Source: an uncultured Dehalococcoidaceae bacterium (GTDB lineage Bacteria > Chloroflexota > Dehalococcoidia > Dehalococcoidales > RBG-16-60-22). Taken from it: a stretch of 29,842 nucleotides of DNA. The translations under genes were made by a program, and so were the position numbers. Below, piece after piece: positions 177 through 28,958 of this stretch. Numbering within the stretch: the stretch's first letter is position 1; every line of letters starts with the position of its first letter. The stretch lies in contig CAYPYL010000001.1 in NCBI GenBank assembly GCA_964414605.1, positions 1 to 29,842 on the forward strand, in the 5' to 3' direction. The notes under the pieces were generated by a model. It saw nothing but the letters and a program-made list of their open reading frames with translations. It did not search any database and was not told where the DNA came from.

Positions 177-821
177 TTAAGTGATGGTGACGGCCCGCGG
201 CCTGGGGACTACGTGGTGATTTCGGGGCGCCTGATACCGGCGCATCAGGTCCAGCCTGCCCTGCTCTTTAAGTCGATTGTAGATGAGCGTCCAGGCGCAG
301 TCCTTCTCCTTATCGACCTCGCACTTGCCGTTATTGGTGCCGCCGCAGGGCCCGTTGACCAGCCCCTTGTGGCAGGCGGTGATGGGGCAGATGCCGGCGG
401 TCTCTCCGAGGATACACTGGCCGCACTGGGCGCAGGCCTCCCGGAAATAACCGGGCGTTTCTTCCACGCCGATGAACAGCGTATCCACCGCCGGAATTAT
501 CGGTTTATCAATATAAAGGTTCATGCGGTGTATACCCAGGGCGCAGCTCATCGATAGAACGGCATCGGCACCGCGGATGAACTGCTCATTTTCCTTCATG
601 GCGGCCTCGGTCATGTCGTCGCAGGCGGTGGGAATTACCATGGCGCCGGTAACGAGCTTGCCCATCTCCTGCAAATGCCCTTTCATCTCTTCTACCTGCT
701 CGATGCCGCCGGTACTGGTCAGGGTGGTACAGGTGCCGCAACCGACCACGAATATCTTATCCAGCCCCTCAAGGCCCCGCTGAATGTCTTCAATCGGTTT
801 TTGTCTTGTTATCGATTTCAT
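177..821 (-). CDS. metV: MetV, Fe-S subunit of MetVF-type methylene-THF reductase
   Basis: N-terminal GCGTC...GG motif and C-terminal 8-Cys block CAQCGQC-x8-CPITAC-x7-PC-x7-C-x7-CAW. Adjacent to metF. RBS GGAGGGG. Confidence 0.9.
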   Translation of the reverse strand: MKSITRQKPIEDIQRGLEGLDKIFVVGCGTCTTLTSTGGIEQVEEMKGHLQEMGKLVTGAMVIPTACDDMTEAAMKENEQFIRGADAVLSMSCALGIHRMNLYIDKPIIPAVDTLFIGVEETPGYFREACAQCGQCILGETAGICPITACHKGLVNGPCGGTNNGKCEVDKEKDCAWTLIYNRLKEQGRLDLMRRYQAPRNHHVVPRPRAVTIT

Positions 822-833
822 AGCTGACCCCTC

Positions 834-3800
834 CTAGCTTTCAAGGTCGCACCTCAAGCACCTTTTTGCCTCCCGGCGGGCTACGTCCTCCGTAAACCCG
901 AGCTCTATCTCTTCAAAGCTGGCTCGCCTTTCCGGGAGCGGCAGCGTCTTCACTTTAGACCTCGGTTTGAGTTCCCAGGACTCCTCCAACTCCGGCGCGG
1001 CCCCTTCGGCAACTTTTACTTTCCGGTCGTAAATCTCGACCCTTGTATCGTCGCCCCTCAAGTACTTATCAATGGCGATAGCCCCTCTCCTCCCGGCGGC
1101 AACAGCCTCGACGACCATGCCCGGCCCGGTCACGAAGTCGCCGCCGGCGAACACGCCGGTTACATTAGTGACCAGGGAGTTGCTATCGACCACCAGGGTT
1201 TCCCACCTTGTACGTTCCAGAGCGCTATCCGCAGGCAGGAAGGAGAGGTCCGGCGCCTGCCCTACGGCGGCGATAACCGTATCCGCCTCCGCGGTGAACT
1301 CCGAGCCACTCACGGGGACGGGCCGCCTTCGTCCGCTGTCATCTGGTGCTCCCAGCGTCATCCTGATGCATTGAAGCCCCGTTACCTTCCAGTTATTGCT
1401 GGTAATCCTGGTGGGGCTGGCGAGAAAACTTATATTCACACCTTCGGCGACGGCTTCATCATACTCGATATCGGAAACCGGCATTTCATCACGTGAGCGC
1501 CGGTAGTAGATACTGGCTTCACCGGCGCCGATGCGGAGCGCGGTCCGGGCGGCATCGAGGGCGACATTACCACCCCCCACGATGGCCACCCGATTGCCCA
1601 CGGTTACTTCCCTGCCCAGTCTGACATCGCGCAGGAACCTCAATCCGTAGTAAAGGCCTTCAATATCCTCGACCTCCCCGGGTATGCCGAGTCGCTGACT
1701 GCGCTGGGCACCCGCCGCGATAAACACCGAGGCGAAGCCGTCGTTTTTCAAGTCCTCGACAGTAAAATTAGTATTGATGGGGGTACCGTATTTAATCTCA
1801 ACTCCCCGCTTGATAATATAGTCGATATCCTGCTGGATGGCGGCGCTCGGCAGGCGGAACTCCGGTATCGCCACCGAAAGCATTCCACCTCCCACGGGAA
1901 GCGCTTCAAAGACCGTTACAGGGTAGCCCTCCTGCGCCAGAAAGTAGGCGCAGGCCAGGCCGGTGGGGCCTGCCCCCACCACGGCAATCTTCTCCCTCTT
2001 GGTTACCGGGAAAGGCTCGATATCACCGGTTTCCGAACCGTGCTCCGCATACCAGTCGGCGGCGAAGCGTTTCAGCGTCCTGATAGCCACGGGTTCATCA
2101 AGATCGCCGCGACGGCACCGTCCCTCACAGGGGTGGTGACAGATCCGACCACACACGGCGGCGAAGGGATTGCGTTCCCGTATGGTCTCGATGGCTTCCT
2201 TATATTCGCCCTCGGCGATATGCGCAACGTACTTGGGGATATTGATACCCGCGGGGCAGGTATGCTGACACGGCGAAATCATCAGGGTCTCGCAGACCGC
2301 AGCCGGGCATTTCTTTTCCCTGATATGCTCCTCGTACTCGCTGCGGAAGTAATTGATGGTAGATAAGACGGGATTAGGCGCCGTCTGCCCCAGGCCGCAG
2401 AGGGAACACTCCTTCACTGTCTTGGCTATCGACAGCAGGGACTCAATATCCTCGTCACGCCCCCTGCCCTCGGTAATCCTGGTAAGAATTTCCAGCATCT
2501 GGCGAGTGCCCAGTCGACAGGGTGTGCATTTCCCGCATGACTCGCTCTGGGTAAAGCTCAAAAAGTATCTGGCCACCTCCACCATGCAGGTGGCCTCGTC
2601 CATGACGACCATCCCACCGGAGCCCATGATGGAGCCGAGTCCGGCAAGCGTCTCGTATTCTATGGGTGTATCGATGAAGCGGGCGGGAATGCAGCCGCCG
2701 GAAGGTCCACCGGTCTGTACCGCCTTAAGCTGCCTGCCGCGCGGAATTCCGCCGCCGATGTTATTAATGATATGGGACAGCGGCGTGCCCATGGGCACTT
2801 CGACCAGACCGCTATTGGCGATTTTCCCGGTAAGAGCAAAAACGGCCGTGCCCTTGCTCTTCTCCGTGCCGATTCCGGCAAACCAGTCGGCGCCTTTTTC
2901 GATAATGACCGGGACAGTTGCCAGCGTTTTTACGTTATTTATAATGGTCGGTTTGCCATCCAGACCGGAGTTGGCCGGGAAGGGTGGTCTTGGGCGGGGC
3001 ATACCGCGCCGGCTCTCGATGGACGCTATCAGCGCCGTCTCCTCGCCGCAGACAAAAGCGCCGGCGCCTTCTTTTATATGGACTGTGAAATTAAAATCAG
3101 TACCGAGGATTCCTTTCCCCAGGAAATTTTTCTCCTGCGCCTGTTCGAGAGCCTTGCGAATGCGTTCTACGGCTAGCGGGTACTCGGCGCGGACATAGAT
3201 ATAGCCTTCACTGGCACCGATGGCGTAGGCGGCTATCGCCAGACCTTCCAGGACGGCATGAGGATCGGCTTCCAGAATGGAGCGGTCCATAAATGCCCCG
3301 GGGTCGCCTTCATCAGCATTGCATATCATGTATTTCTGCTCGCCGGCAGCTTTACGGCAGAATTCCCACTTGGTACCGGTGGGAAAGCCCGCCCCGCCCC
3401 TGCCCCGCAGACCGGAACTTTTTATAATGTCAATAACCTCTTCCGGCGCCATCATAAAGACCACTTTTTTGAGGGACTGGTATCCTCCCCTATTGATATA
3501 ATCGCTGATACGTTCGGGATTTATGTGCCCGCAGTTCCGCAAAACGATACGCTCCTGCTCCTGATAGAATTTAATATCCGCATATCCCGGTATTGCCTCG
3601 CCGGTCACCGGGTCGTGGTAGAAAAGGCGCTCAACCGGCTGGCCGTCGCGGAGGTGAGAAGTAACGATATCGGCGGCATCGTCTGCATCGACATGGGTAT
3701 AGAAGATGCCATCGGGTTCAACCACGACATTAGGTCCCTGCTGGCAGAAGCCGTGACAGCCGGTGAAGTCTATCTCGGCTCCGGTTACTCCCTGCTTTTT

Positions 3801-3893
3801 CAGTTCCGCCTTGAGAGCTTTGTAGACGTTGTCGCCGCCACCCGAGACACATCCGGTACCCCGGCAGACTAATACCTTGCGTTTTCGCGGCAT
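834..3893 (-). CDS. NuoF/HydB-like flavoprotein fused to a C-terminal GltD/NfnB-like FAD/NAD(P)H oxidoreductase domain (1019 aa from ATG 3893)
   Basis: N-terminal [2Fe-2S] domain (VCRGTGC...GCHGFCQQGP), GLRGRGGAGFP, NADEGDPGAFMDR, GAFVCGEETAL and CGKCTPC...CSLCGLG. These are followed by PCQHTCP, NPFAAVCGRIC, GAGPTG, GGGNVALD, YRRS, FAGGD and EAKRCLRC. ATG 3893 has RBS GGAAGGAG and lies 1 nt after the nuoE stop. Confidence 0.9.
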   Translation of the reverse strand: MPRKRKVLVCRGTGCVSGGGDNVYKALKAELKKQGVTGAEIDFTGCHGFCQQGPNVVVEPDGIFYTHVDADDAADIVTSHLRDGQPVERLFYHDPVTGEAIPGYADIKFYQEQERIVLRNCGHINPERISDYINRGGYQSLKKVVFMMAPEEVIDIIKSSGLRGRGGAGFPTGTKWEFCRKAAGEQKYMICNADEGDPGAFMDRSILEADPHAVLEGLAIAAYAIGASEGYIYVRAEYPLAVERIRKALEQAQEKNFLGKGILGTDFNFTVHIKEGAGAFVCGEETALIASIESRRGMPRPRPPFPANSGLDGKPTIINNVKTLATVPVIIEKGADWFAGIGTEKSKGTAVFALTGKIANSGLVEVPMGTPLSHIINNIGGGIPRGRQLKAVQTGGPSGGCIPARFIDTPIEYETLAGLGSIMGSGGMVVMDEATCMVEVARYFLSFTQSESCGKCTPCRLGTRQMLEILTRITEGRGRDEDIESLLSIAKTVKECSLCGLGQTAPNPVLSTINYFRSEYEEHIREKKCPAAVCETLMISPCQHTCPAGINIPKYVAHIAEGEYKEAIETIRERNPFAAVCGRICHHPCEGRCRRGDLDEPVAIRTLKRFAADWYAEHGSETGDIEPFPVTKREKIAVVGAGPTGLACAYFLAQEGYPVTVFEALPVGGGMLSVAIPEFRLPSAAIQQDIDYIIKRGVEIKYGTPINTNFTVEDLKNDGFASVFIAAGAQRSQRLGIPGEVEDIEGLYYGLRFLRDVRLGREVTVGNRVAIVGGGNVALDAARTALRIGAGEASIYYRRSRDEMPVSDIEYDEAVAEGVNISFLASPTRITSNNWKVTGLQCIRMTLGAPDDSGRRRPVPVSGSEFTAEADTVIAAVGQAPDLSFLPADSALERTRWETLVVDSNSLVTNVTGVFAGGDFVTGPGMVVEAVAAGRRGAIAIDKYLRGDDTRVEIYDRKVKVAEGAAPELEESWELKPRSKVKTLPLPERRASFEEIELGFTEDVARREAKRCLRCDLES

Positions 3894-3894
3894 A

Positions 3895-4380
3895 TTACTC
3901 CTTCCCACTCTTGCCAAATAGTCGGGCTACCTTCTTGGGATTCATGTCGCCGTGGGCTTCTTTGTTTATCATGAGATTCGGTGCCAGCGCACAGACACCG
4001 ATACAGGCGACCGTTTCGAGGGTATATTCCATGTCGTCGGTGGTTTCCCCCTCCTCAACGCCCAGGTACTGCCTGACCAGTTTCAGGATAGTCTTGCCGC
4101 CGCGCACGTGGCAGGCGGTTCCCCGACAAACCCGTACGATATTTTTACCCCGGGGATGGGTGTAAAGCTGCTCATAAAACGTAATCACCGCCTGTACCTG
4201 GCTGGGGAACAGCCCCAAGGCGGCGGCTATACGTGGTATGGCTTCCGGGGGAATATAGCCGACCTTCTCCTGGATCTCCTGGGTCAGGGGTATCAACGCC
4301 CATCTTTCACCCCGGTAACCCGCGATAATTTTATCTATCTGTCTCATGTTTACCGGGGGTGCTTTCTTTGCCTTATCCAT
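3895..4380 (-). CDS. NuoE/HydC-like [2Fe-2S] subunit
   Basis: VCRGTACHVRGG and VACIGVCALAP ligand motifs; TFY motif; 8-nt overlap with the upstream gene. Confidence 0.92.
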   Translation of the reverse strand: MDKAKKAPPVNMRQIDKIIAGYRGERWALIPLTQEIQEKVGYIPPEAIPRIAAALGLFPSQVQAVITFYEQLYTHPRGKNIVRVCRGTACHVRGGKTILKLVRQYLGVEEGETTDDMEYTLETVACIGVCALAPNLMINKEAHGDMNPKKVARLFGKSGKE

Positions 4381-7063
4381 TATCGGCAGTCCTTTCCAGT
4401 CTGACCGCGCATGATTTGAGCGCCGGCGTTTTGACCTGACGGTCGAGTACGGCAGGGAACAGGCCGTAAACGGGAGTGTTCGGGTAAGACATGGGCATAT
4501 AAAGCAGGCCGCGCGATAACGTGTTATTAACTTTAGCGGTTGCTGTTATCTCTCCCTGCGCCGAGATGACCTTTACGGTAGCGCCGTCGATTATGCCCGT
4601 TTCGGCGGCATCGTCATCGCTTATTTCCAGAAACGCTTCCGGAGAAAAACGGTTCAGCCGTCCCGACCGCGTGCTGCGCGCGCCGGTGCCAAAGTGATAA
4701 CGACTGGAGCCGACTATTAAAGTATGGGGATAGCCGTTGCTTTCCGCTTCCTGCGGAGGCGTATACTCCACGGTTAAAAACCGACCGAAACCGCTGGGGA
4801 AAAGTCCTTTATACAAACGCCGGTTCCCGTAATAGCCGTCTTCCTCTTCGGCCAGTTCCGGTTCTATAACGTCGCTGTCAACGCGGGCGGCATGATGGCA
4901 GAACGGCACCGATTCCTCGATTTCATTAAGCACTTCCTGTTGAGAGTCATACCGCAACGGGTAGTCCATCTTACCGGAGAGCTCCAGTATTATTTCCGCA
5001 TCAGGAAGGCTCTCGCCAACAGGCTCGATGGCCTTCGTTAGCTGCTGGACCCTCCCCTCGAAATTGGTGAAGGTGCCGTATTTTTCAGCGAAGCTGGCAG
5101 CCGGCAGCACCACCGAAGCCAGCGCGGCGGTTTCGGTCAGGAACATATCCGTCACCACCAGTAAATCGAGCCTCGCCAGGGCTTCCTTGACCAGGGACGT
5201 TTGAGGGAAACTCACCGCCGGATTTTCTCCCATGACGAACATCGCCTTCACCTTTCCAGTTCCCGCCGCCTCTATCATCTCCCAGGCTGTCAATCCGGCG
5301 TTCACCGGCAAGTCGCATCGCCAGCGCTCCTCGAACGTCTGCCTGTCTTGAGCGTTATTGATGTTCTTATAACCGGGCAGGAAATCGGGCAGAACGCCCA
5401 CGTCGCATGCTCCAAGGGCATTGTTCTCCCGTTGCAGGGCAAAAATCCCGCCGTGCCTGCCGGCATTCCCGGTGAGCATATTCAAATTTCCGATGGCGAT
5501 TACGGCATCGGTTCCGGTGACGTATTGCGTTATACCGTTCCCGTAGACGATAGAGGTTTGTTCGGCGCCGGCAATAATACGTGCGGCTTTCTGCATGTCT
5601 TTCCTGGGAACGCCCGTGATTTTCTCTGCGTATCCGGGTTCCTGCTGCTTCAGACTTTGAGCCCACCGCGCGAAGTTATCCGTCATACGGGTAACGAACT
5701 CTATATCCATTTTCCCCTCTTCGATAATCACCCTGGCAAGTTCGTTGAGCAGGGCTACATCGGTACCCGTGCGGGGTTTGAGCCACATATGGGCGAACTG
5801 CGATAGCGACGTCCGGCGCGGGTCTACGACGATTAAACCGGCACCTTTATTCCTGACGGCTCGCTTGATGGCATAAGCTACGGCGGGAGCCGATATTTCC
5901 GGGTCGGCCCCGATGACCATTATCACCTGTGATTTTTCCAGCGAATCTATAGTTCCGGTAGTGCCGGCGTAGCCGACGGATGTACCCAGGCCCACCCGGC
6001 TCGCGGCGCTGTAAAGACGACTGCCGTTATCAATGTTGTTGGTGCCCAGGACGACGCGAGTGAACTTCTGGAGAAGATAATTTTCCTCATTGGTGCACTT
6101 TGAGGAGCCGAATACGGCGATAGCGTCGGCGCCGTGGTTCTCTTTTATCCGGTTGAGTTCACCGGCCACCCGAGAAAGCGCTTCTTCCCAGGTAGCCTCC
6201 TGAAACTGGCCATCTACTTTAACCTGCGGATGAAGCAGTCGCTCCGGACTGTGAATAAAGTCGTACCCGTAACTCCCCCGCACGCACAGAGTGCCGGCGT
6301 TCACCTGCCCTTCCGGGGGAGGCCTGGAAAATATTACCCTGCCGTCCTTGACTCCCAGACAAACGGTGCACCCGCAGCCGCAATAAGGACATATCGTGGT
6401 GACCGTTTCCGTCGCCGTACCGCTATAAGCCCTTTCCTTCTCCATCAGGGCGCCTGTCGGGCAGATAGCCACGCAGGTGCCGCAGAAGGTGCACTCCGAT
6501 TTTTCCAGCGGCATATCGTTCAGGGTCGCCGGCCTGACCGCAGCGCCGCGGTCGATATAGTCGATAGCCCCCTCCACGACCAGCTCCTGGTCAGCCCTGA
6601 TGCACTTGCTACACATGATACACTTGGAGAGGTCGCGCTCGATAAACGAATTGACTTCTTCGATTATGTCCAGCTGCGGAATTCTCTGGAACTCGACGAG
6701 GCCGATTCCCATTTCCGCCGCCAGCTTGCGTAACTGACAGCTATTTCCCTTATCGCAAACCAGGCAGGAATCGGGGTGGCTGGCGAGGAGGAGTTTTAAG
6801 ATTTTTTTTCGGTGCTCCACCACCCGCGGTGAGTTGGTCTTGATAACCATTCCCGGCGATATAGGCGTCACGCAGGAAGCCAGCAAAGCACCGTTGCGTT
6901 CGTCCTCCACCAGGCAGAGACGGCAGGCTCCTACCGATGCCAGATTAGGGTCGTAGCAGAGAGTAGGAATATATACCCCGGATTCCCGCGCCAGGTCCAG
7001 GATAGTAGTGCCCGGGTAACCGCTTACCTCGACGTCATTCAGGACAATCGTAATTGCTTCCAC
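4373..7063 (-). CDS. FdhA/NuoG-like molybdopterin-oxidoreductase-family subunit with a non-canonical active site
   Basis: [2Fe-2S] (CYDP...GACRLC...SC), HPDSCLVC-x5-C, 2x[4Fe-4S] domain, CPYCGCGC...LC cluster, GSSKCTNEENY, NNID, LPAASFAEKYGTFTNFEGRVQ and a molybdopterin-dinucleotide-type C-terminal domain. GTG start directly after the upstream TGA. Confidence 0.85.
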   Translation of the reverse strand: MEAITIVLNDVEVSGYPGTTILDLARESGVYIPTLCYDPNLASVGACRLCLVEDERNGALLASCVTPISPGMVIKTNSPRVVEHRKKILKLLLASHPDSCLVCDKGNSCQLRKLAAEMGIGLVEFQRIPQLDIIEEVNSFIERDLSKCIMCSKCIRADQELVVEGAIDYIDRGAAVRPATLNDMPLEKSECTFCGTCVAICPTGALMEKERAYSGTATETVTTICPYCGCGCTVCLGVKDGRVIFSRPPPEGQVNAGTLCVRGSYGYDFIHSPERLLHPQVKVDGQFQEATWEEALSRVAGELNRIKENHGADAIAVFGSSKCTNEENYLLQKFTRVVLGTNNIDNGSRLYSAASRVGLGTSVGYAGTTGTIDSLEKSQVIMVIGADPEISAPAVAYAIKRAVRNKGAGLIVVDPRRTSLSQFAHMWLKPRTGTDVALLNELARVIIEEGKMDIEFVTRMTDNFARWAQSLKQQEPGYAEKITGVPRKDMQKAARIIAGAEQTSIVYGNGITQYVTGTDAVIAIGNLNMLTGNAGRHGGIFALQRENNALGACDVGVLPDFLPGYKNINNAQDRQTFEERWRCDLPVNAGLTAWEMIEAAGTGKVKAMFVMGENPAVSFPQTSLVKEALARLDLLVVTDMFLTETAALASVVLPAASFAEKYGTFTNFEGRVQQLTKAIEPVGESLPDAEIILELSGKMDYPLRYDSQQEVLNEIEESVPFCHHAARVDSDVIEPELAEEEDGYYGNRRLYKGLFPSGFGRFLTVEYTPPQEAESNGYPHTLIVGSSRYHFGTGARSTRSGRLNRFSPEAFLEISDDDAAETGIIDGATVKVISAQGEITATAKVNNTLSRGLLYMPMSYPNTPVYGLFPAVLDRQVKTPALKSCAVRLERTADNG

Positions 7064-7879
7064 TCAAGCTGTCTCCCCATCCTGTACCTTCGGCTGGAGA
7101 GATTCAATCCACGACTGGTCGCCACGCGCCACGGAACGGATACCGGTCAGCAGCCGGGAACTGGCGGCGGCTTTGGGGATAAACCCCACCGCCCCCACCT
7201 TTTTACTGGCAAGGACATTCTCCTCGTCGTCGTACTGCGTCAGCATCAGGACCTTGGCGGTCTTTTGTTTCTGGCAAATTTCACGGGCGGCGTCCAGTCC
7301 GTTCATCACCGGCATGATAATGTCCATCACCACGACATCCGGTATGAGCTCCATAGTCTTCTCCAGCGCCTCTTTCCCGTTGACGGCCTCCCCGACGACC
7401 TGCATATCCCGCTGCAGCGTAAGCACGGATTTTATCCCGTCCCTTACCACCGCGTGGTCATCGACAATCAGCACCCTGATTTTCTTGGTAGCCCTGTCCA
7501 GCAGGGCCTGGATGCGGGGTACCAGGGCAACCGGCTCGACGGGCTTGGCGAGGAAATCTTCGGCGTCTATCTGCATACCCTCATCCATTCTCCAACCCTT
7601 GAGCAGTTGCTTTTCCGGCGGAGCATTGATAACCATGATTGGTAGATTGCCAAACCCCAGGGTCTGCTTCATCCATTTGTGGAACAGAAAGGCATCGCCG
7701 CGGGGCATAATCGTGCCCAGGACAATCGCGTCGGGCTCGTGAGAGCGTACCGACTCTTTAGCCTCTTCCTGGTCGCCGGCGGTGACGACGGTATACCCTA
7801 CTTTTTCCAGGGCCTTCTTTACCTCTTCTAAAAATTCTTCTTCGTCATCCACTATCAGAATCGTTTGTTCTTTTTCCAT
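7064..7879 (-). CDS. Tandem pseudo-receiver + NarL-type receiver protein with no output domain (271 aa from ATG 7879)
   Basis: First REC domain ILIVDDE...IVLGTIMP...KP; second REC domain VLIVDDH...VVMDIIMP...LTQYDD...PK. No HTH. RBS AAAGGAGG before ATG 7879. Confidence 0.88.
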   Translation of the reverse strand: MEKEQTILIVDDEEEFLEEVKKALEKVGYTVVTAGDQEEAKESVRSHEPDAIVLGTIMPRGDAFLFHKWMKQTLGFGNLPIMVINAPPEKQLLKGWRMDEGMQIDAEDFLAKPVEPVALVPRIQALLDRATKKIRVLIVDDHAVVRDGIKSVLTLQRDMQVVGEAVNGKEALEKTMELIPDVVVMDIIMPVMNGLDAAREICQKQKTAKVLMLTQYDDEENVLASKKVGAVGFIPKAAASSRLLTGIRSVARGDQSWIESLQPKVQDGETA

Positions 7880-7930
7880 TTTTTGCCTCCTTTCACCGGA
7901 AGCGCCTATAGTTACCACTATATGATGCAT

Positions 7931-7963
7931 AGTATAAACAGGGAATAGGGGATTTACCCCGAT
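7931..7963 (-). promoter_or_regulatory. Candidate promoter of the left redox operon: -10 TATACT (7936-7931) plus imperfect palindrome ATAGGGGATTTACCCCGAT (7945-7963)
   Basis: Read directly. The palindrome overlaps the expected -35 position and recurs at 14837-14855. Confidence 0.5.
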
Positions 7964-8082
7964 AACCGGCAGACTAAACCCCTGAATTTACGAAAATATA
8001 CCCTGACAATGGGATTAACGAAAAATGAACGGACGGCGTTACGGAGGAGCGGCAGTTTGTATGATTCCGGGTCAGGCGAAGA

Positions 8083-8736
8083 CTAAAGAGTGATGATACC
8101 CTTACGCAGAGCGGCTTTAACCAGTTCGACGCGGTTATGGACACCCAGCTTCAGCATGAGATTGGTCTTGTGCCCTTCCACGGTCTTGGGGGTTATGACC
8201 AGGATATTCGCTATTTCCTGTGTGCTGCGGCCTTCCGCGAGCAACTTGAATACCTCGCGCTCGCGTGTTGTTAATCTGTTATACGGGTCCTGCATCGTAC
8301 GTTGGCCGGCGGAGTCCCGATAGTTGTCCACCATCAGCTTGGTAACGGACGGCGAAAGGTAAGAGTCCCCCCGGAAGACCGAGCGTATCCCCACCGTGAG
8401 TTCCGAAGACGCCGCCGCCTTACTGATAAATCCGGAGGCGCCTGACTCGATAACCGGAAAGAAATACTCTTTATCATCGTACTGGGTAAGGACAAGCACT
8501 TTGGTCCTCGGGAATTCTTTACTTATGCGGCGCGTTGCCTCCAGACCGCCCATCACCGGCATGGCAATATCCATGAGCACAACATCAGGGTCCAGCTCCC
8601 GCACCTTGTCCAGTGCTTCGTTGCCGTTGGTAGCTTCTCCCACTACCTCGATATCACCGGATAATGCCAGCAGGGCGCTAATGCCGTCGCGTATGATGGT
8701 ATGGTCGTCAACTACCAGCACTCTTATCTTTTGCAT
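8083..8736 (-). CDS. NarL/FixJ-family response regulator (REC + LuxR-type HTH)
   Basis: VLVVDDH, PDVVLMDIAMP, LTTREREVFKLLAEGRSTQEIA, TPKTVEGHKTNLMLKL. Confidence 0.95.
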   Translation of the reverse strand: MQKIRVLVVDDHTIIRDGISALLALSGDIEVVGEATNGNEALDKVRELDPDVVLMDIAMPVMGGLEATRRISKEFPRTKVLVLTQYDDKEYFFPVIESGASGFISKAAASSELTVGIRSVFRGDSYLSPSVTKLMVDNYRDSAGQRTMQDPYNRLTTREREVFKLLAEGRSTQEIANILVITPKTVEGHKTNLMLKLGVHNRVELVKAALRKGIITL

Positions 8737-9970
8737 ATGCTATTTCCTGTCCGACCGGTATCCTGGCCCAGACCTTGGTACCCTTCCCCGGTTCAGATTC
8801 GATTCCGCTGGTGCCGCCGAGAAAACCGATTCTCTCCCTCATGCTGAACAGACCGCGCCCCCGACCGCTCTCCTCTACATCGGTAATTTCTGACACGTTA
8901 AATCCCTGGCCGTCATCGGTAATGGTGAGTATAAATTCATCCTGCCTGAATTCCAGTATCATGGCAGCATTCTTTGCTTTGGAATGTTTGACGATGTTGC
9001 CGATGGCGCTCTGGACGAAACGGAAAAGGGCTGCCTCGACATCAGGTGGAAACCTCATTTCTTTGCCTTTTGTCTCTATGGTCACGTTGATTTCAAGCAA
9101 CTGCAACCTGGACTCCACGTTCTGGCGAATCGCCGGTACCAGTCCCAGCGTATCCAGTAAAGCCGGGTGCAGGTTGGATATCAGCCGACTTACCTCGTTG
9201 TGCACCTGCACGGTCAATGCCTGTACCTTTTTCAGTCCGGCGGTAAATTCAGGCTCATGCTGGCCGGACATGGCGGATAACTCAATCAATGCCTGCAACT
9301 GTAGGGCTATCCCGGAAAGCGATTGACTGGTCTCGTCGTGAAGTTCGCGGGCTATCCTTCTCCTCTCGTCCTCCTCCGCCATCAGGTTCTGGCGGGCGAG
9401 CCTGCGCAGCCTCTCCCGCGCTTTCCTCAAGCGCTCGTACAGTCTGGCGTGTTCTACGGCGATGCCGAGCTGGTCGCCGATAGCGTAAAGCAGATGCATA
9501 TCGCTGGTGGTAAATTTACGGGACTCGCGACTGGCCACGTTCAGAACGCCCAATACCTTATCCCTGGCCCGGAGGGGCACACATACATATGCCTTCAGCC
9601 CCTCCGCCGCAACCATCTCCCGATGTGCCACCCGCGGGTCCGCGGAGATATCTTCGAGGAGAATAGCCTTGCCGGTCTTGGCCACGCTGCCGGAAATACC
9701 TTCGCCCAGGCTCAAACTTACATTCTCCACGAATTCCTTGCTTAGACCGCGATGTACTACGTGGGAGAGTTCCTGGGTGAGTTCATCGATGAGTAATATC
9801 TCACCGATGGTCCCGTTCATGATATCCAGGGTGCTGTCAAGACCGACACCGAGAATGGCATTTAAGTCCCAAAGGCCGCTTAACGCCGCCGATATCCTGC
9901 TTAATACCAGAAGCTCGGACTGCTGCCCGCCCTTTTTCACTTTTAGCCCATGCGTCCCAGAGGAGTTCAT
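8708..9970 (-). CDS. Cytoplasmic GAF + HisKA_3 + HATPase sensor histidine kinase
   Basis: GAF (VPLRARDKVLGVLNV), H-box ERRRIARELHDETSQ, NIVKHS, DDGQGF, GRGLFSM, GKGT. No transmembrane segment seen. ATG 9970 preferred over TTG 9994. Confidence 0.92.
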   Translation of the reverse strand: MNSSGTHGLKVKKGGQQSELLVLSRISAALSGLWDLNAILGVGLDSTLDIMNGTIGEILLIDELTQELSHVVHRGLSKEFVENVSLSLGEGISGSVAKTGKAILLEDISADPRVAHREMVAAEGLKAYVCVPLRARDKVLGVLNVASRESRKFTTSDMHLLYAIGDQLGIAVEHARLYERLRKARERLRRLARQNLMAEEDERRRIARELHDETSQSLSGIALQLQALIELSAMSGQHEPEFTAGLKKVQALTVQVHNEVSRLISNLHPALLDTLGLVPAIRQNVESRLQLLEINVTIETKGKEMRFPPDVEAALFRFVQSAIGNIVKHSKAKNAAMILEFRQDEFILTITDDGQGFNVSEITDVEESGRGRGLFSMRERIGFLGGTSGIESEPGKGTKVWARIPVGQEIAYAKDKSAGS

Positions 9971-10024
9971 TTTTCCCCACACTCCTCCCCTCAACTATAT
10001 TACGGCAACTATAACGTATCAATT

Positions 10025-10087: not shown

Positions 10088-11308
10088 CTATCCGCTCCTG
10101 ATGCTGCGGATAATTTCACCCAGTTTGGGCCTTTTCCCATACATGAGCAGGTAAATTCTGAAAACCTTGATGGATATATATAATACACCGATGATAGAGA
10201 GTGCCAGTAACACGATGCTGGTAGCCATTTCCCAGGCAGGGATATCGCTGACTCCCAGCCTTAGCATCGCTTCTACGGGAGCCGTGATGGGGAAAATAGT
10301 CAGGACTGTCCAGATTGGGCTTTTCGGGAATATCATCAATAAAGATGAGAACCAGAGGGGTACGATGGCAAACATGGAATAAATCAGGGATAATTGCGTT
10401 CCTTCCCGGGCATTGGGGCTGATGGCGCCGACACCCGCCGAAAGCGCAGTGAACAATAGATATCCCAATATGAAATAGATAATCCCCAGAACGATGAAGT
10501 TAGCCGGTATCTGTATTGTGCTGAAAAAACCGCCGAAAGTGGATGAGGCCAGGTTCAACAGGAGCGGCAGTGAGATAAGCCAGACTACCACCTGTACCAG
10601 ACCAGCTATACCCAGTCCCAACACCTTTCCAGTGAGTAATTGCCGGGTGGTAACGGAGGACAGTAATACCTCAATAAGCCGGCTCTCTTTCTCCTCTCCC
10701 AGTCCCTGTACCATATAGCCGGCAAAGAAATTCAGAGAGAGGGCAAGCAGCAGGCTGAAAATAGCGGGAACAAGGAGATTCGCGAAGCCGCCCTGCTCGG
10801 TAGCCACTGCGCCGGTTTCGGTAAGTCTGGTAGTCGCCAGATATAACGGGGATTCAACGAGCTGAATAATACCGGCAGGCACTTCCCCCGATAAGAGATT
10901 ACTCGTAAGAAAACTCTTTATGGCGGACTGAATTCCCGGGGGTGGTTCCAGCTGTTTCTCCAGAGTATACAGGTTTACTAATCCCGCCGACGTGTAAGAC
11001 GTTGAAATGACGAAATATTCCGAAACGTCGTCCGCGAGTAAGGCAGCCGTCGCCTCATCCTGCGTAGGGTAGCGGACCATCTCGATTGGCCCCTGGGCGG
11101 TATACCGATCGAATCCGCCGATTTCATCAACGTACCCGATGGTAGTCGTTTCTACTTCCGACGGCTCGATGATTGACGATATCAGCTGGACGACGCCTAT
11201 CGCCAGGAGAGCCAGGACCGGCACGATAAGGGTCATCACGATAAATCCTGTCCGCTTTATCGTATGCAGGAATTCGTGCCTGAATATCAGCAGCGTCTTC
11301 CTATCTAT
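10088..11308 (-). CDS. ABC-2 type (NatB-like) permease; probable non-canonical ATA start at 11308
   Basis: EEKESRLIEVLLSSV, LLTGKVLG and multiple TM helices. The frame stays open upstream of the ORF-track start and gives IDRKTLLIFRHEFLHTIKRTGFIVM after SD AAGGAGGT. Confidence 0.88.
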   Translation of the reverse strand: MDRKTLLIFRHEFLHTIKRTGFIVMTLIVPVLALLAIGVVQLISSIIEPSEVETTTIGYVDEIGGFDRYTAQGPIEMVRYPTQDEATAALLADDVSEYFVISTSYTSAGLVNLYTLEKQLEPPPGIQSAIKSFLTSNLLSGEVPAGIIQLVESPLYLATTRLTETGAVATEQGGFANLLVPAIFSLLLALSLNFFAGYMVQGLGEEKESRLIEVLLSSVTTRQLLTGKVLGLGIAGLVQVVVWLISLPLLLNLASSTFGGFFSTIQIPANFIVLGIIYFILGYLLFTALSAGVGAISPNAREGTQLSLIYSMFAIVPLWFSSLLMIFPKSPIWTVLTIFPITAPVEAMLRLGVSDIPAWEMATSIVLLALSIIGVLYISIKVFRIYLLMYGKRPKLGEIIRSIRSG

Positions 11309-12195
11309 TTTTTCGCCACCTCCTTCAGGAATATCTCGTTAAGCGAGGGAGTGGCCATCTCAAAACGATTGATGACTATACCGCGGCTTACCAGCTGCTC
11401 CAGGATTTGTTGAGGGGTTGTCTTCTCATCCAGCAACAGTTCGACGTAGCCCTTGTGCTGGCGTTTCCCGGTAACCCCGGATACGTCACCCAGTTCACCT
11501 TCGGTATTAACGAAAACCGAATTGCCTCTGTATTTCGACTTTATTTCAGCCAGGTCACCGTAAAGGACGGCGCGCCCGTTGTTTACCATCAGGATACGGT
11601 CGCACAGTTCCTCCACCTGGTTCATCTGATGAGCGCTCAAGACGACGGCTTTACCCTGATTCTTCAAGTCGACACATATCTCTCTCAACAGCTCTACGTT
11701 CACCGGGTCGAGGCCGGAAAATGGCTCGTCCAGAATAACCAGCTGCGGGTCATGCGTGATAGTAACAACGAACTGAATAATCTGACTCATACCCTTGCTC
11801 ATTTCCTCGATTTTCTTTCCCTTATTGGTTAACATGCCTGTTTTTTCGAGCAGTTCGCTGGCCCTTTCTTCCGCCCGATGCCGGTCCATGCCCTTAAGGG
11901 AAGCAAGGTATATTATTGTTTCAAGGACTTTCAGTTTTTTATACAGGCCTCTTTCCTCGGGCAGGTAGCCGAGGTTATTCTGGGCATCTTCACCGAACTT
12001 CTTGCCGAAGACAAATACCTCACCCGAATCCGGTCTGATGATGTCCATCGCCATCCTGATTGTCGTGGTCTTGCCCGCGCCGTTGGGGCCTATCAGACCG
12101 AATATCTCGCCCTGATTGACCGAGAAAGACAGGTCATCAACAGCGATTTTATCCGCAAATGTCTTGACTACATGGCTGACTTTAACTGCCTGCAT
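11305..12195 (-). CDS. ABC transporter ATP-binding subunit (NatA-like)
   Basis: Walker A GPNGAGKTT, signature MSKGM, Walker B VILDEP, H-loop SAH. Confidence 0.95.
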   Translation of the reverse strand: MQAVKVSHVVKTFADKIAVDDLSFSVNQGEIFGLIGPNGAGKTTTIRMAMDIIRPDSGEVFVFGKKFGEDAQNNLGYLPEERGLYKKLKVLETIIYLASLKGMDRHRAEERASELLEKTGMLTNKGKKIEEMSKGMSQIIQFVVTITHDPQLVILDEPFSGLDPVNVELLREICVDLKNQGKAVVLSAHQMNQVEELCDRILMVNNGRAVLYGDLAEIKSKYRGNSVFVNTEGELGDVSGVTGKRQHKGYVELLLDEKTTPQQILEQLVSRGIVINRFEMATPSLNEIFLKEVAKK

Positions 12196-12492: not shown

Positions 12493-14121
12493 GTGGATGT
12501 GGAGATGGGTACGAAAAAAGCAGAGACGTCCGAGCCTATAGACTCCGGGCTGAAAGTTGACCTACAGGAAATAATCGATGCCGTAGAAGACGAGCTTCTG
12601 CTAGTCGACCCCGATTACCGTGTCAGGTTCGCTAATGCAGCTATGCTCAATAAATACCAGACCAAAGGCGATTCGCCTATCGGCAAGTTGTGCTATAAGG
12701 TCTTTCATAACAGGAACACTCCCTGCCATGAACCTTTTTGGGACTGCCCCCTGCAACAGGTCGTTGAAAGCGGGAACATGACGACGGTTATTCATCCTGT
12801 CAACCAGCCCGGAGTTCATGGTTACGTAAAAATCACGGCATATCCTATTTTTGACAAGCAGGGCAAGACCAGAGCCATGGTGGAATTGCGGAGGGATGTC
12901 ACCGCGGAAAGAGAACTGGAAACGCAGATTCTCAGGCGACATCATCAACTTTTAGCATTGAGTCATATCTCGGGTGCCGTGAGCGGACTGTATGATCTGG
13001 ATACCATTTTAAAGACTGCACTGGATGATGTGCTAGAGCTTGTTAACAGCGACATCGGAGGCATTTTACTCTTTGATGAAGAGTCCCAGACCTTGAGCTA
13101 TCGGGTACAGCGTGGATTATCCGCAAAATACACCGAAGAGGCTAAAATACCCCTGGGTAAGAGCATCGCGGGACAGGCGGCAGAAATCGGCGAGCCCATA
13201 ATAGTGGAGGATATTTCCAAGGACCCGCGTATCACCCGGCCGGAGCTAGTTATCGCCGAGGGACTCAAAGGATTTGTGAGTATTCCCCTTAAGGCGAAGG
13301 AAAAAGTGACCGGGGTAATGAATATCGCCAGCCACGTGGCAAACCGTTTTGCCGCCGACGAGGTCTCTTTACTCAAGTCGATTGGCGATTATCTGGGTAC
13401 GGCAATTGAGCAGGCAAGACTCTACGATAGGCTGGCGCAGGCGGGAGAAAGATATCGGGCGCTTCTACAACACGCCCTGACGGCACAGGAACAGGAACGA
13501 AAGAGGATAGCCCGCGAATTACACGACGACACCAGCCAGGCGATTACCAGCCTGACCTTAAGCCTCCAGGCGATAATGACGATTGCGGAGATGAAGGGTA
13601 TCGGGGATGCCGAATTTATAGAGAAGGTCAAAGCGACGCACTCCTTCGCGGTTCACGCCGGCCATGAAATCGTGAGGCTAATGAAAGAACTCCGGCCCAG
13701 CCTGCTGGATGAGCTCGGTATGCCGGCGGCGATACACCGTTACGCCAAGGACACGCTTCAGTCTCATGGAATCAACGTATCTTCTGAATTTAATGGTACG
13801 GAAAAGAGGTTCCCGCCAGAGGTCGAAGTGACTCTTTTCCGGGTGGCGCAGGGACTAATCGGCAATATCCTGGAACACTCCGAAGCGAAGAATACCCTGG
13901 TTAAACTGGAATGTGATGAAAATGAGTGTACGCTGTATATAGAGGACGATGGCAAAGGCTTTGATGTGAAGAAACTAACGCGGGTTGACCCCAGCGGAAG
14001 GGGGGCGGGTTTGTTCACTCTCAAGGAGAGGGTAAGTCTGGCCGGAGGACACTGCCATATCGACTCCCGTCCGGGGCAGGGCACCAAGGTAACCGTAAAA
14101 ATACCGCTTGTGGAAATTTAA
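12493..14121 (+). CDS. Cytoplasmic PAS (Cys-motif) + GAF + HisKA_3 + HATPase sensor histidine kinase
   Basis: PAS (VDPDYRVRFAN...GKLCYKVF...RDVT), GAF (IPLKAKEKVTGVMNI), H-box ERKRIARELHDDTSQ, DDGKGF, GAGLF, GQGT. Confidence 0.92.
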   Translation: MDVEMGTKKAETSEPIDSGLKVDLQEIIDAVEDELLLVDPDYRVRFANAAMLNKYQTKGDSPIGKLCYKVFHNRNTPCHEPFWDCPLQQVVESGNMTTVIHPVNQPGVHGYVKITAYPIFDKQGKTRAMVELRRDVTAERELETQILRRHHQLLALSHISGAVSGLYDLDTILKTALDDVLELVNSDIGGILLFDEESQTLSYRVQRGLSAKYTEEAKIPLGKSIAGQAAEIGEPIIVEDISKDPRITRPELVIAEGLKGFVSIPLKAKEKVTGVMNIASHVANRFAADEVSLLKSIGDYLGTAIEQARLYDRLAQAGERYRALLQHALTAQEQERKRIARELHDDTSQAITSLTLSLQAIMTIAEMKGIGDAEFIEKVKATHSFAVHAGHEIVRLMKELRPSLLDELGMPAAIHRYAKDTLQSHGINVSSEFNGTEKRFPPEVEVTLFRVAQGLIGNILEHSEAKNTLVKLECDENECTLYIEDDGKGFDVKKLTRVDPSGRGAGLFTLKERVSLAGGHCHIDSRPGQGTKVTVKIPLVEI

Positions 14122-14124
14122 CGT

Positions 14125-14778
14125 ATGAAGAAAATAAAGGTATTGATAGTTGATGACCATACCCTGGTACGGGCCGGAATACGTTCCCTGCTGATGCTCG
14201 TCGATGATATCGAAGTAGTCGGCGAGGCATCGGACGGTAAAGAAGCCCTGACAAAGGTAAGGCAACTCATGCCTGACGTGGTACTCATGGACCTGGCAAT
14301 GCCGGTCATGGGCGGACTCGAAGCCACACGACGTTTACGAAAGGAATTCCCCGGCATAAAGGTACTGGCACTGACACAATATGACGATAGCGAATATGTT
14401 ATTCCCATCATCGAAGCAGGTGCCAGCGGTTTTGTAACTAAGATGTCGGCGTTTACGGAGCTTGCCGCGGCTATCGAAGCCGCCAATAGAGGAGAATCCT
14501 ACCTGTCTTCAACTGCCGCCACGGCTCTTGTCGAGGAATATCAGCAGAAAATACCATCTAACGGCGAACAGGACCCTTACCAGCAGCTAACGGATAGGGA
14601 GAGGGAAGTGATTAAGCTGGTTGCGGAAGGGCATACCAGCCGTGAGATTGCCGAGATACTTATCGTCAGCCCCAAGACGGTGGAGTGGTATAAAAGCAGC
14701 TTGATGAACAAGCTGAACCTCCGCAGCAAGACCGACCTGATTAAGTATGCCATCCGCAAGCGGATAATAACAATATAG
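14125..14778 (+). CDS. NarL/FixJ-family response regulator (REC + LuxR-type HTH)
   Basis: VLIVDDH, PDVVLMDLAMP, LTDREREVIKLVAEGHTSREIA, SPKTVEWYKSSLMNKL. Confidence 0.95.
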   Translation: MKKIKVLIVDDHTLVRAGIRSLLMLVDDIEVVGEASDGKEALTKVRQLMPDVVLMDLAMPVMGGLEATRRLRKEFPGIKVLALTQYDDSEYVIPIIEAGASGFVTKMSAFTELAAAIEAANRGESYLSSTAATALVEEYQQKIPSNGEQDPYQQLTDREREVIKLVAEGHTSREIAEILIVSPKTVEWYKSSLMNKLNLRSKTDLIKYAIRKRIITI

Positions 14779-14836
14779 CCGCATCACAGTGAGCCCCTTA
14801 AACCCAGCGATAGCCAGTACTTTTCCCGGTTGAGAA

Positions 14837-14855
14837 TTAGGGTATTTACCGGTAT
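14837..14855. promoter_or_regulatory. Candidate response-regulator operator TTAGGGTATTTACCGGTAT
   Basis: Shares TAGGG-N-ATTTACC-NNN-AT with 7946-7963; lies upstream of the right redox operon. Confidence 0.5.
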
Positions 14856-14920
14856 ATATTCCAGAGCCGTACCCCCTTGCTTTCCGTTGCATTTCCTATT
14901 GCCTGGTTCCGGCGGTCTGG

Positions 14921-14929: not shown

Positions 14930-14986
14930 TAAGTAGTATATTAACCGTCGATTGTTGCCACTCAACAGAGATTGAGGTGTTTGCTG

Positions 14987-17095: not shown

Positions 17096-17775
17096 TAGTA
17101 GCGGAGCAAAAGCCTCTGGAAGATATAATACGCATGATTGGCCCTTATCAACGAGTATTGATACTCGGTTGTGGCACCTGCATGACGGTATGTGACGCCG
17201 GTGGTGAGCGTGAGGTCTCTTTTCTCCACGACGCATTACAGCTGGCGCAGACAAGGAGTGGTGAAGGTGCTCATACCTTTACCGAACATACCGTGAAAAG
17301 GCAGTGCGACCCGGAGTTCCTGGAGCCGCTTGCCGAAAGAATAGCTGATTTGGACGTAATACTATCGCTGGGTTGTGGCATCGGCGTGCAGGCTATAGCG
17401 GAACGTTTTGCGGATATGCCGGTGCTGCCCGGCGTTAACACCTCTTTCATGGGTATGACTAAAGAATCGGGGGTCTGGGATGAGCGCTGCGCCGCTTGCG
17501 GTGAGTGCCGGCTGGAAGACACTGCCGGCATATGTCCAATCACCAGGTGTACTAAAGGCATACTCAACGGTCCCTGTGCCGGTACTAAGAACGGTAAATG
17601 TGAGGCTAATAAGGATATGGACTGCGCCTGGATTTTAATTTATCAGCGCCTGGAAAGATTACAGCAACTGGACAAGATGCGCCGGTATTACGCTCCCCGG
17701 AATTACCGGGCAATCCCCAGACCGAGAAGAATCACGATTAACGTAGAGACTGCGGTGGGAGAAAGCGATGGCTAA
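17092..17775 (+). CDS. metV: MetV, second copy
   Basis: GCGTCMTVCDAGG, RQCD, GCGIG and 8-Cys block CAACGEC...CPITRC...PC...C...CAW. TTG start overlaps the upstream TGA. Confidence 0.92.
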   Translation: MIVAEQKPLEDIIRMIGPYQRVLILGCGTCMTVCDAGGEREVSFLHDALQLAQTRSGEGAHTFTEHTVKRQCDPEFLEPLAERIADLDVILSLGCGIGVQAIAERFADMPVLPGVNTSFMGMTKESGVWDERCAACGECRLEDTAGICPITRCTKGILNGPCAGTKNGKCEANKDMDCAWILIYQRLERLQQLDKMRRYYAPRNYRAIPRPRRITINVETAVGESDG

Positions 17776-19594: not shown

Positions 19595-19950
19595 TAGTGA
19601 TAGCCGACGAAGTATTACTCTCAAATTAGCTATATTGCGAGCGAAGAGGCGGTTCTACGTTGCACGGTGAAGTAGTATTTTACGATAGGTTGCAACTACT
19701 AGATAGCTTCCGAACTGGTATGATAATTCGTGATTATAACGGTAGGCCGTGCTGGATAATAGCTAAAACTTTTTCTAATGATTTTGCCCTTGTGTTCTAA
19801 AGACAAATCCTCTTATGGTGGGCGGTGGTGTACAATACGTGGAACTTTTAAATTGGCTTTTAACCTATCTGGTTAGCTTAAAACAGGTAAAATATCAACT
19901 TATTGGACTGGGAGACAGGAGAGAGTTGAGCTCCACCTGAAACAATACTA

Positions 19951-20250
19951 GTGGCTACTCCAATATTCGTGCAGCCACTTTACCTCTTTTGCCCAGAAGC
20001 CCATGGATCCTTCGCCGACCCTTACCTTGCTGTATTTGCCACCGAGGTGAATAATAATGCCGAGGCGGCTGGTTTAAGGTGTGCCATCGTCCTTCTTTGT
20101 TACAAAAGGGGCCAACATTCCGTCGTTGCCTTCGATACGACGGACAGGGGTATGATTTACATTGAACCTCAAACCGATGCCGCAATCGAACCCGAAGTTG
20201 GCGGCAAGTACCAAGGAGAGGAAATCAAGGAAATCCCCATACCTTGGTGA
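19951..20250 (+). pseudogene. Probable remnant (C-terminal half) of a papain/transglutaminase-like cysteine-protease-fold protein
   Basis: FATEVNNNAEAAGLRCA...HSVVAF.T.D.G.IYIEPQ resembles the His and EPQ segments of this fold. No Cys at the expected nucleophile position just before FA, and no good RBS at the GTG. Confidence 0.5.
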
Positions 20251-28774: not shown

Positions 28775-28958
28775 CTTCCTATCCTCCTTTACCTTTTCAA
28801 GCTGATTTGTCACGCTTGGTCTCACTACGAAGAGATCAACGATTACTTTCCTCAATCTCCCTCCTTTTGTGATGGTCCTTTCTTGCAAATCACCTATGAT
28901 TCCTGTTAAAATAAAAACAGGTGGTGGCTTACCCGTTATCGCCTAAATTCTTTTCTTG

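Follow-up and report, generated by a model that had tools for sequence, protein, structure and literature searches.

Our study concerns a stretch of DNA of 29,842 nucleotides from an uncultured Dehalococcoidaceae bacterium (assembly GCA_964414605.1, contig CAYPYL010000001.1, forward strand), referred to here as the window, and in particular the two tandem receiver proteins that it encodes. Each of these proteins joins an N-terminal pseudo-receiver (PsR) to an intact receiver (REC2), and the two are called PsR-REC paralogs 1 and 2. The window, which has a G+C content of about 48-60 %, contains two divergently oriented gene modules, each with a HisKA_3 kinase, a NarL-type regulator, a PsR-REC protein and MetV (Table 1). 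Between the modules the kinases are 48 % identical, the NarL-type regulators 67 % and the PsR-REC proteins 50 % (the last across 251 amino acids, aa), and from these comparisons the triad appears to have been duplicated as a whole unit, together with its enzyme genes. The PsR proved to belong to a wider family of receivers and pseudo-receivers encoded beside MetV and MetF (together MetVF), and in some loci it is a covalent part of a MetF-MetV fusion protein.

Architecture and conservation of the PsR-REC proteins

Paralog 1 reads from 7879 to 7064, its ATG being preceded by GGAGG, and the ATG of paralog 2 is preceded by GGAGGAG. Pfam recognized two Response_reg stretches in each protein and nothing else. 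A preliminary description of this DNA had placed Gly at the phospho-acceptor position of the first receiver in both copies, and the codons bear this out, with GGC at 7715-7717 in paralog 1 (G55, in IVLGT) and GGT in paralog 2 (G73, in IILGT). In HMMER alignments with solved receivers, G55 aligned with the phospho-acceptor Asp of Bacillus subtilis PhoP and of PleD, N85 and K112 matched the conserved Thr and Lys, respectively. The PsR of paralog 1 retains the Asp pair (D11, D12) and K112-P113, and taken alone it scored 59.2 bits against Response_reg, for which the cut-off is 30.2. A pseudo-receiver has been defined as a computationally recognized receiver without at least one of the five catalytic residues, and an aspartate-less receiver (ALR) as one in which the phospho-Asp is missing (PMC12632262); the N-terminal domain falls under both definitions.

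The two copies also share the motif GWRxxEG(M/L)Q(I/V)D, described earlier as an insertion. The segment between beta4 and beta5 is indeed longer than in REC2 or the NarL receivers, by a modest five residues, and the KGWRxxEGxQxD loop replaces helix alpha4. An AlphaFold2 (AF2) model of paralog 1 (predicted local distance difference test, pLDDT, 76.8; predicted template modelling score, pTM, 0.59) gave both halves a (beta-alpha)5 fold; all that is left of alpha4 in the PsR is a short helix at 88-91, and the motif lies in the loop after it (92-105).

REC2, by comparison, was found to be an intact, NarL-like receiver, as the preliminary description held. It has the PF00072 quintet D140, D141, D186, T214 and K236, with the best Response_reg stretch at 136-247, and in the AF2 model it superposed on the receivers of LiaR, VraR, DesR and NarL at a root mean square deviation (rmsd) of 1.1-1.4 Å by Foldseek. 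REC2 of paralog 1 is 61 and 53 % identical to the two NarL receivers of the window, the higher value being to the module 1 regulator, and REC2 of paralog 2 is 57 and 49 % identical to them. Both proteins stop 18-19 residues past REC2, where the NarL regulators run on into a linker and a helix-turn-helix (HTH), and Pfam gave no GerE/LuxR HTH match in either, so that they are not DNA-binding regulators of the NarL/FixJ type. Helix alpha4 is likewise class-specific, reading EEN(V/M)(L/I)xxK in REC2 as against (K/S)EY(F/V)(F/I)PVIE in NarL. For these two reasons, the Joint Genome Institute (JGI) name for homologues, 'DNA-binding NarL/FixJ family response regulator', is wrong. Databases otherwise label the homologues just 'response regulator', and NCBIfam has no specific model, all matches being to generic receivers and far under their cut-offs.

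Conservation was counted across 242 homologues, 121 for each paralog. In all 242, Gly occupies the Asp site and the Thr site is either Asn or Asp, position 85 being invariably Asn in family 1 and invariably Asp in family 2. Residues G55, T56, P59, A86, G95, W96, R97, E100, G101, K112 and P113 were invariant or nearly so, as was the REC2 quintet, and this invariance rules out reading the PsR as a degenerate remnant. The closest homologues came from metagenome-assembled genomes (MAGs) of Dehalococcoidales and 'Chloroflexi RBG', those of paralog 1 in Dehalococcoidales MAGs being 78-94 % identical.

Gene order was also conserved. A scan of genome contigs with a two-sequence PsR alignment relied on generic N-terminal receiver patterns, and 12 of its 80 loci held true family members; the other 68 were reused as negative controls. 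Related genome loci kept an identical order in 13 cases out of 13, comprising seven of type 1 (L001-L006, L081), with the order HK-NarL-[PsR-REC]-FdhA-NuoE-NuoF/GltD-MetV-MetF (HK, histidine kinase), and six of type 2 (L007-L012), with the order HK-NarL-GltD/MvhD-MetV-MetF-[PsR-REC]. More distant tandem members from metagenomes (44-60 % identical) were again of both types. In the window, a 203-bp gap separates the module 1 NarL-type regulator from paralog 1, whose TGA (7066-7064) runs directly into the GTG (7063) of the FdhA-like gene, with GGGGAG immediately 5' of that GTG; paralog 2 begins 69 bp past metF and is the last gene of module 2. One copy thus heads its module and the other ends its own, as had been described. 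Since the Gly, the motif and the catalytic residues of REC2 are near-invariant and the gene order is kept in all 13 loci, the anatomy of the PsR-REC proteins is not due to chance.

The pseudo-receiver family and its linkage to MetVF

A profile of the PsR only was searched against 1.8 billion representative sequences and then used in a word-indexed profile search. The best 150 of the representative search were dominated by multi-receiver hybrid kinases, for which scores sum over domains, and family members were therefore picked by motif. The other PsR architectures that emerged share the Gly at the Asp site and GW(R/K/T)xxEG. Many were stand-alone proteins of 131-170 aa, often with a coiled-coil-like C-terminal helix. 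All eight stand-alone loci examined adjoin MetV and/or MetF, and a GAF-PAS-HisKA_3 kinase and a NarL regulator, divergently oriented, are present in all six for which enough upstream DNA is available. In four of the eight, the neighbouring MetF-MetV fusion (656-696 aa) itself starts with a PsR of the same family (LLGY...KGWRRDEGLQMDA). This N-terminal PsR is about 130 aa long and is without the beta5 Lys-Pro, and usually one or two stand-alone PsR genes lie ahead of the fusion. Pfam reported MTHFR and DUF5981 only on the PsR-MetF-MetV fusions and missed the N-terminal PsR, although BLASTP aligned the window PsR with one such N-terminus at 35 % identity over 114 aa (E=1e-24). The fetched loci contained 11 PsR-MetF-MetV open reading frames (ORFs).

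Two rarer architectures were represented by one protein each, P0167 and P0171: a PsR with a Cys-rich tail (CW...C...C...CW...C...C..C), and a true receiver followed by a PsR, which reverses the order of the window proteins.

Across four architectures, G55, P59, G61, P80, G95, W96 and G101 were invariant, and neither the stand-alone nor the MetFV-fused PsR has any phosphorylatable Asp. As judged from these sequences, it is the PsR alone, and not the tandem protein, that is the conserved unit.

A metagenome scan seeded on EG[LM]x[MIV][DE]A[ED][DEN]Y retrieved 80 loci, the central proteins of which split into two perfectly co-varying classes. In class G (53 loci) the phospho-acceptor Asp is replaced by Gly and the Thr by Asp, the loop contains Trp and the Asp pair is often degenerate, whereas the true receivers of class D (25 loci) retain D, T, K and DD and have Leu, Tyr or Ile where class G has Trp. 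The spacing from T to K is 27 residues in both classes, compared to 22 in REC2 (T214 to K236). We accordingly defined a MetVF-associated receiver family by the longer spacing (27 vs 22) and a segment ending EG(L/M)x(M/I/V)(D/E)A(E/D)(D/E/N)Y, class G having in addition the Gly at the Asp site and KGW(R/K/T). Both window copies belong to this family, by sequence and by MetV/MetF neighbourhood alike, and its named sources span Chloroflexota and Clostridia.

Neighbourhoods were counted in loci of at least 5 kb. MetV or MetF was present in 5/9 loci with tandem PsR-REC, 15/18 with a single PsR and 17/17 with class D receivers (in each of the last within 3 kb), but all 61 control receiver loci were without them. 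Among the tandem and single loci, those negative for MetV/MetF were either cut short or of type 1 with MetV about 7 kb downstream. A NarL HTH was nearby in 8/9 tandem and 15/18 single loci, compared to 1/17 class D and 1/61 control loci. After collapsing at 90 % identity, 24 of 28 family clusters had MetV/F vs 0/61 controls (Fisher p=6e-18, a value inflated by relatedness). The preliminary description had proposed a dedicated family tied to these operons and suggested looking for co-occurrence of the GWRxxEG pseudo-receiver with metVF and NarL pairs; this comparison was strongly positive, as was the synteny of all 13 related loci. Its setting of 'redox operons' holds in that both copies are embedded in such operons, although the common partner is MetVF specifically and not redox operons generally.

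Class D also differs in its signalling genes. In five class D operons analysed with Pfam, cytoplasmic HisKA kinases (cNMP_binding- or GAF-HisKA-HATPase_c) adjoin or separate MetV and MetF and are accompanied by one or two output-less receivers, for example in the order MetV-HK-MetF-REC-REC (REC, receiver), and no DNA-binding regulator was found in any of the five. From its gene content, this arrangement looks like an enzyme-directed two-component system.

Table 1. Positions of the features in the window and of related features in other retrieved loci (L numbers)
Feature	Position	Strand	Basis
PsR-REC paralog 1, 271 aa, heads module 1	7064-7879	-	ORF, ribosome-binding site, translation, two Response_reg stretches
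PsR of paralog 1, aa 1-132	7484-7879	-	Pfam, PDB alignments, conservation counts, AF2
GWRMDEGMQID loop of paralog 1, aa 95-105, family hallmark	7565-7597	-	
REC2 of paralog 1, aa 133-271, intact NarL-type receiver without HTH	7064-7483	-	NarL alignment, invariance, Foldseek
PsR-REC paralog 2, 284 aa, closes module 2	18740-19594	+	
G73 of paralog 2	18956-18958	+	
GWRRFEGLQVD loop of paralog 2, aa 113-123	19076-19108	+	
Module 1 histidine kinase, GAF-HisKA_3-HATPase_c, presumed phosphodonor	8708-9994	-	Pfam, conserved synteny
Module 1 NarL-type response regulator, REC and GerE	8083-8736	-	Pfam, NCBIfam
FdhA-like formate dehydrogenase alpha with fused NuoG-type Fe-S (iron-sulphur) N-terminus	4373-7063	-	
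NuoE-like gene, electron-input subunit of module 1	3895-4380	-	Pfam
NuoF+GltD-like fusion, electron-input subunit of module 1	834-3917	-	Pfam
MetV (DUF5981) of module 1	177-821	-	Pfam and synteny
Module 2 kinase, PAS-GAF-HisKA_3-HATPase_c	12493-14121	+	Pfam
Module 2 NarL-type regulator	14125-14778	+	Pfam
Module 2 GltD-like+MvhD fusion	14972-17095	+	
Module 2 MetV	17092-17775	+	Synteny in L007-L012
Module 2 MetF	17768-18670	+	Synteny in L007-L012
Promoter/operator-like region 5' of paralog 1	7917-7985	-	Kept in 8 orthologous intergenic regions
Putative operator element TTCAGGGGTTTAG	7985-7973	-	
Putative operator element, palindrome GGGGTAAATCCCC	7960-7948	-	
Putative operator element TATAGT	7922-7917	-	
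PsR-MetF-MetV fusions	L083:8575-10545, L085:8549-10516, L087:6451-8466, L089:4528-6546		
Further PsR-MetF-MetV fusions	L109, L110, L115, L128, L131, L132, L133		
Class D metVF operons	L143:5065-8853, L157:3272-6948, L147:690-8387, L152:784-7711, L086:4612-11503		
Inverted repeat regions, stand-alone PsR loci	L082:7798-8000, L085:7843-8000, L086:4377-4611, L087:5339-5462, L089:3456-3578, L083:7917-8000		

Neighbouring genes and putative regulatory DNA

The enzyme genes of module 1 (834-7063, -) encode an FdhA/NuoG-type subunit, NuoE and a 1027-aa NuoF+GltD/NfnB-like fusion joined directly to MetV-MetF. This gene content suggests a formate- or NAD(P)H-linked, possibly bifurcating, methylene-tetrahydrofolate (THF) reductase complex. 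The FdhA-like ORF is unbroken, an in-frame TGA being absent. In orthologous loci metF comes after the module 1 MetV, and here it would fall beyond the left end of the window. In module 2, the first gene of the second MetV-MetF set encodes a 707-aa GltD/NfnB-like flavoprotein with a C-terminal MvhD (FlpD) domain, and because this fusion heads the set, the organism has two differently wired MetVF systems.

Three eight-locus constants were seen in the orthologous intergenic regions 5' of paralog 1, namely TTCAGGGGTTT, the palindrome GGGGTAAATCCCC and TATAGT. In module 2, AGGGTATTTNCC lies 5' of the first enzyme gene; at about 14836-14862 (+), 5' of the enzyme genes, AGGGTATTTACC is followed by GGTATATATTCC, and both are kept in orthologous loci. 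These conserved motifs are candidate NarL operators. Stand-alone PsR genes have a different conserved inverted repeat upstream, TACGCCnnnnGGCG(C/T)TTA, which is situated between the PsR gene and the divergent NarL and kinase genes, and TACGCCnnnnGGCGCTTA is a putative target of the regulators of the stand-alone clade. Scans for sigma-70 promoters and intrinsic terminators around both PsR-REC genes did no better than on shuffled sequences.

Elsewhere in the window, an ABC-2 type transporter pair lies between the modules (10088-12195, -), with the permease at 10088-11239 and an ATPase with a DrrA C-terminal domain at 11305-12195. Paralog 2 is followed by about 350 bp of lower G+C without an ORF and then by a 99-aa ORF at 19951-20250 (the region as a whole being 19595-20250), for which Pfam gave no match. 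Situated 3' of module 2 is a giant ORF of 2761 aa (20603-28888, -) with a right-handed beta-helix and NosD-like repeats, which is probably a surface protein.

Possible roles and comparison with known systems

True receivers, PsR-REC and the PsR in its stand-alone and fused forms have a single partner in common, MetVF. Covalent domain fusion is classic evidence of a functional, and probably physical, link. As MetVF is common to every branch and the PsR is found fused to MetF-MetV, we read the PsR as a probable enzyme-directed module. The PsR also occurs alone and within the fusion, and for this reason it is most likely itself the output of the tandem protein. The label 'output-less' in the preliminary description is therefore correct in that no HTH or other Pfam domain follows the receivers, but it is misleading as to function.

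The reading that we prefer, and in which our confidence stops a little short of even, is that the PsR docks on the MetVF-containing redox complex while REC2, phosphorylated by the HisKA_3 kinase of the operon, gates the docking. The PsR would be the effector part and would dock on the MetVF-containing oxidoreductase complex of its own operon. REC2, a copy of the NarL receiver without the HTH, would be phosphorylated by the same cytoplasmic GAF/PAS-HisKA_3 kinase, which would thus feed two arms, one through NarL to transcription of the operon and the other, post-translationally, through PsR-REC to the enzyme complex. The PsR would be presented differently once REC2 is phosphorylated, and REC2 may represent a phospho-switch that Dehalococcoidales added to the PsR. 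Three points are inferred: phosphate transfer to REC2 from the kinase next to it, attachment of the PsR to the enzyme, and the sign of the effect.

REC2 and the NarL receivers have in common alpha1 and the beta5-alpha5 loop, which we take to be the kinase-docking elements of receivers. The strongest co-variation between REC2 and the neighbouring NarL was seen at columns 147 (alpha1) and 237 (K+1), both of which presumably fall in this docking region; a module-specific pattern at the alpha1 positions that we assume to contact the kinase was confined to position 147.

Several observations weigh against this reading. The co-variation signal comes from 14 pairs in about five clades and is suggestive only, and REC2 is 0.547 identical to its own NarL and 0.534 to the NarLs of other loci, a negligible gap. 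The inter-domain geometry of the AF2 model is uncertain at the pTM given above, and the hallmark loop has a pLDDT of <50 at 97-101. The MetF and MetV of Dehalococcoidales carry no PsR. If the PsR pairs with another PsR, as the co-occurrence of stand-alone and fused forms might suggest, the target of the window PsR would be unclear. Finally, because class G is nearly always found beside a HisKA_3/NarL pair (in the tandem and single loci counted above), the two-component system itself could be the partner of the PsR.

This last point leads to an alternative that we consider unlikely but the most serious of the rivals, in which the PsR or PsR-REC binds the HisKA_3 kinase or NarL and tunes signalling, forming an Osp-like loop from the regulated operon. 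Osp is receiver-like, is expressed from the regulon of its kinase and inhibits that kinase (PMC9430884), and REC2 is close enough to the NarL receiver to dock on the same kinase. The class G genes not only adjoin the HisKA_3 kinase and NarL but also lie just 3' of the conserved operator-like motifs. Feedback of this kind would, however, leave the PsR-MetF-MetV fusions unexplained, together with the MetVF-linked class D, which has no NarL/HisKA_3 neighbour in 16/17 loci. Moreover, alpha1 of the PsR (EEEFLEEVKKAL) is unlike that of NarL, and the PsR is therefore no mimic of the cognate receiver.

That REC2 acts purely as a phosphate sink, competing with NarL for the phosphoryl groups of the kinase and draining them with the PsR as just a scaffold, seems to us distinctly improbable. 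The active site of REC2 is complete, and its 49-61 % identity to the NarL receivers includes alpha1 and the beta5-alpha5 loop; being co-expressed with the target operon, it would yield negative feedback. A sink would have no need of a PsR, but no other part of the protein is as strongly conserved or as widespread: its G, W and G are invariant in four architectures, and the stand-alone and MetFV-fused members, lacking any phosphorylatable Asp, cannot be sinks. The domain fusion and the MetVF-linked class D favour, on comparative grounds, a phosphorylation-dependent regulator that binds the enzyme over a phosphate sink.

Least likely of all, in our estimate, is that the PsR is an input domain whose remodelled active-site face binds a small ligand or cofactor, such as a folate, a nucleotide or a redox cofactor, and reports the metabolic state to REC2 or MetFV, since it has no recognizable ligand-binding motif and no conserved Cys, and its beta1-alpha1 loop is acidic and is variable outside Dehalococcoidales, even though conservation is concentrated on the former active-site face (the C-terminal ends of beta3 and beta4 and the next loop), the D-to-G, T-to-D/N and W changes co-vary perfectly across 78 loci, and excerpts of two reports describe a central pseudo-receiver of ShkA that binds cyclic di-GMP (PMC7010744) and a receiver domain that binds an Fe-S cluster (PMC7078487). 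A flavodoxin-like, cofactor-binding PsR was rated low on the same acidic, variable loop and absent Cys.

Docking of the PsR on MetVF, if it occurs, would be one instance of a broader possibility: that MetVF complexes are under direct, enzyme-level two-component control by a dedicated receiver/pseudo-receiver family serving as a detachable or fused regulatory subunit. We propose this tentatively, short of calling it probable. The regulatory subunit would take the form of a stand-alone PsR, a PsR-MetF-MetV fusion, true receivers alongside HisKA kinases that adjoin or separate metV and metF, or, as in the window, a PsR joined to a receiver of the NarL type.

Reduction of methylene-THF is the principal exergonic reaction of the Wood-Ljungdahl pathway. 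According to two reports, it is still a matter of debate which electron donor the MetVF-type enzymes use physiologically (PMC8760232, PMC8515935). Our literature search found no paper on a PsR family with Gly at the Asp site and a KGWRxxEG loop or on its dedication to MetVF, none on the PsR-MetF-MetV fusion or on kinases beside or between metV and metF, nothing linking MetVF to a receiver protein and no paper on a MetVF regulator. If direct control of MetVF is confirmed, the two modules of the window would be three-component systems (kinase, transcription factor and enzyme-directed adaptor) duplicated as whole units. Because the receiver family accompanies MetVF in Chloroflexota and Clostridia at least, at times as part of the same polypeptide, it offers a concrete way of testing for post-translational control over the flow of carbon and electrons in acetogen-like and subsurface Dehalococcoidia. 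It is also of interest for signalling biology, as a clear case of a tandem receiver whose output is probably the pseudo-receiver, and one that can be compared with the 'split', 'fused' and 'phosphorylatable' versions that occur in nature. Our findings also correct the widespread 'DNA-binding NarL/FixJ regulator' mis-annotation and reveal an N-terminal domain of MetF-MetV fusion proteins that Pfam had overlooked.

An output-less tandem receiver with an N-terminal PsR is a known architecture. DrdR of Xanthomonas campestris likewise has a dead N-terminal PsR, a functional C-terminal receiver and no output domain, and it binds and activates PilB/PilT, both of its domains being required (PMC13507683); it is thus a precedent for a PsR-REC protein that acts by binding its target. 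The window proteins share this tandem architecture, which denotes an architectural class, with no homology implied. The PsR of DrdR is described as a truncated (beta-alpha)4, whereas the model of the window PsR, in which Gly takes the place of the phospho-Asp, is a complete (beta-alpha)5; and DrdR is an orphan that targets pilus ATPases, whereas the window genes lie beside their own kinase and NarL paralog in MetVF redox operons.

The best whole-chain Foldseek match (E 5e-12) was PleD of Caulobacter (PDB 1w25, 2v0n), in which a phosphorylatable receiver is paired with a pseudo-receiver and the contacts change upon phosphorylation (PMC12632262). However, PleD has the order receiver then PsR, followed by a GGDEF output, whereas the window proteins have the reverse order and no further domain, and are thus not of the PleD type; the rmsd of 13-17 Å at 20 % identity likewise indicates that the domain arrangement differs. 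The NarL/LiaR/VraR/DesR-type regulators, which are partners of HisKA_3 kinases, resemble REC2 closely in structure, but the GerE/LuxR HTH is absent from the window proteins and their alpha4 is class-specific.

A 2025 review of bacterial pseudo-receivers names Glu as the residue most often found at the Asp site of ALRs and describes activation mechanisms as largely unknown (PMC12632262). FrzS of Myxococcus (PDB 2gkg), an aspartate-less docking receiver that matched the PsR in sequence (E 2.4e-8), docks through its alpha3-beta4-alpha4 surface (PMC12632262). This is the same region as that of the hallmark in the window PsR, although FrzS is without the KGWRxxEG loop and belongs to an unrelated pathway. 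Finally, the CckA inhibitor Osp (PMC9430884) and phosphate-sink single-domain receivers are likewise output-less and encoded in the regulon of their own system, where feedback is possible. Osp acts on the kinase, whereas the common denominator of the family described here is the MetVF enzyme, covalent fusion included.

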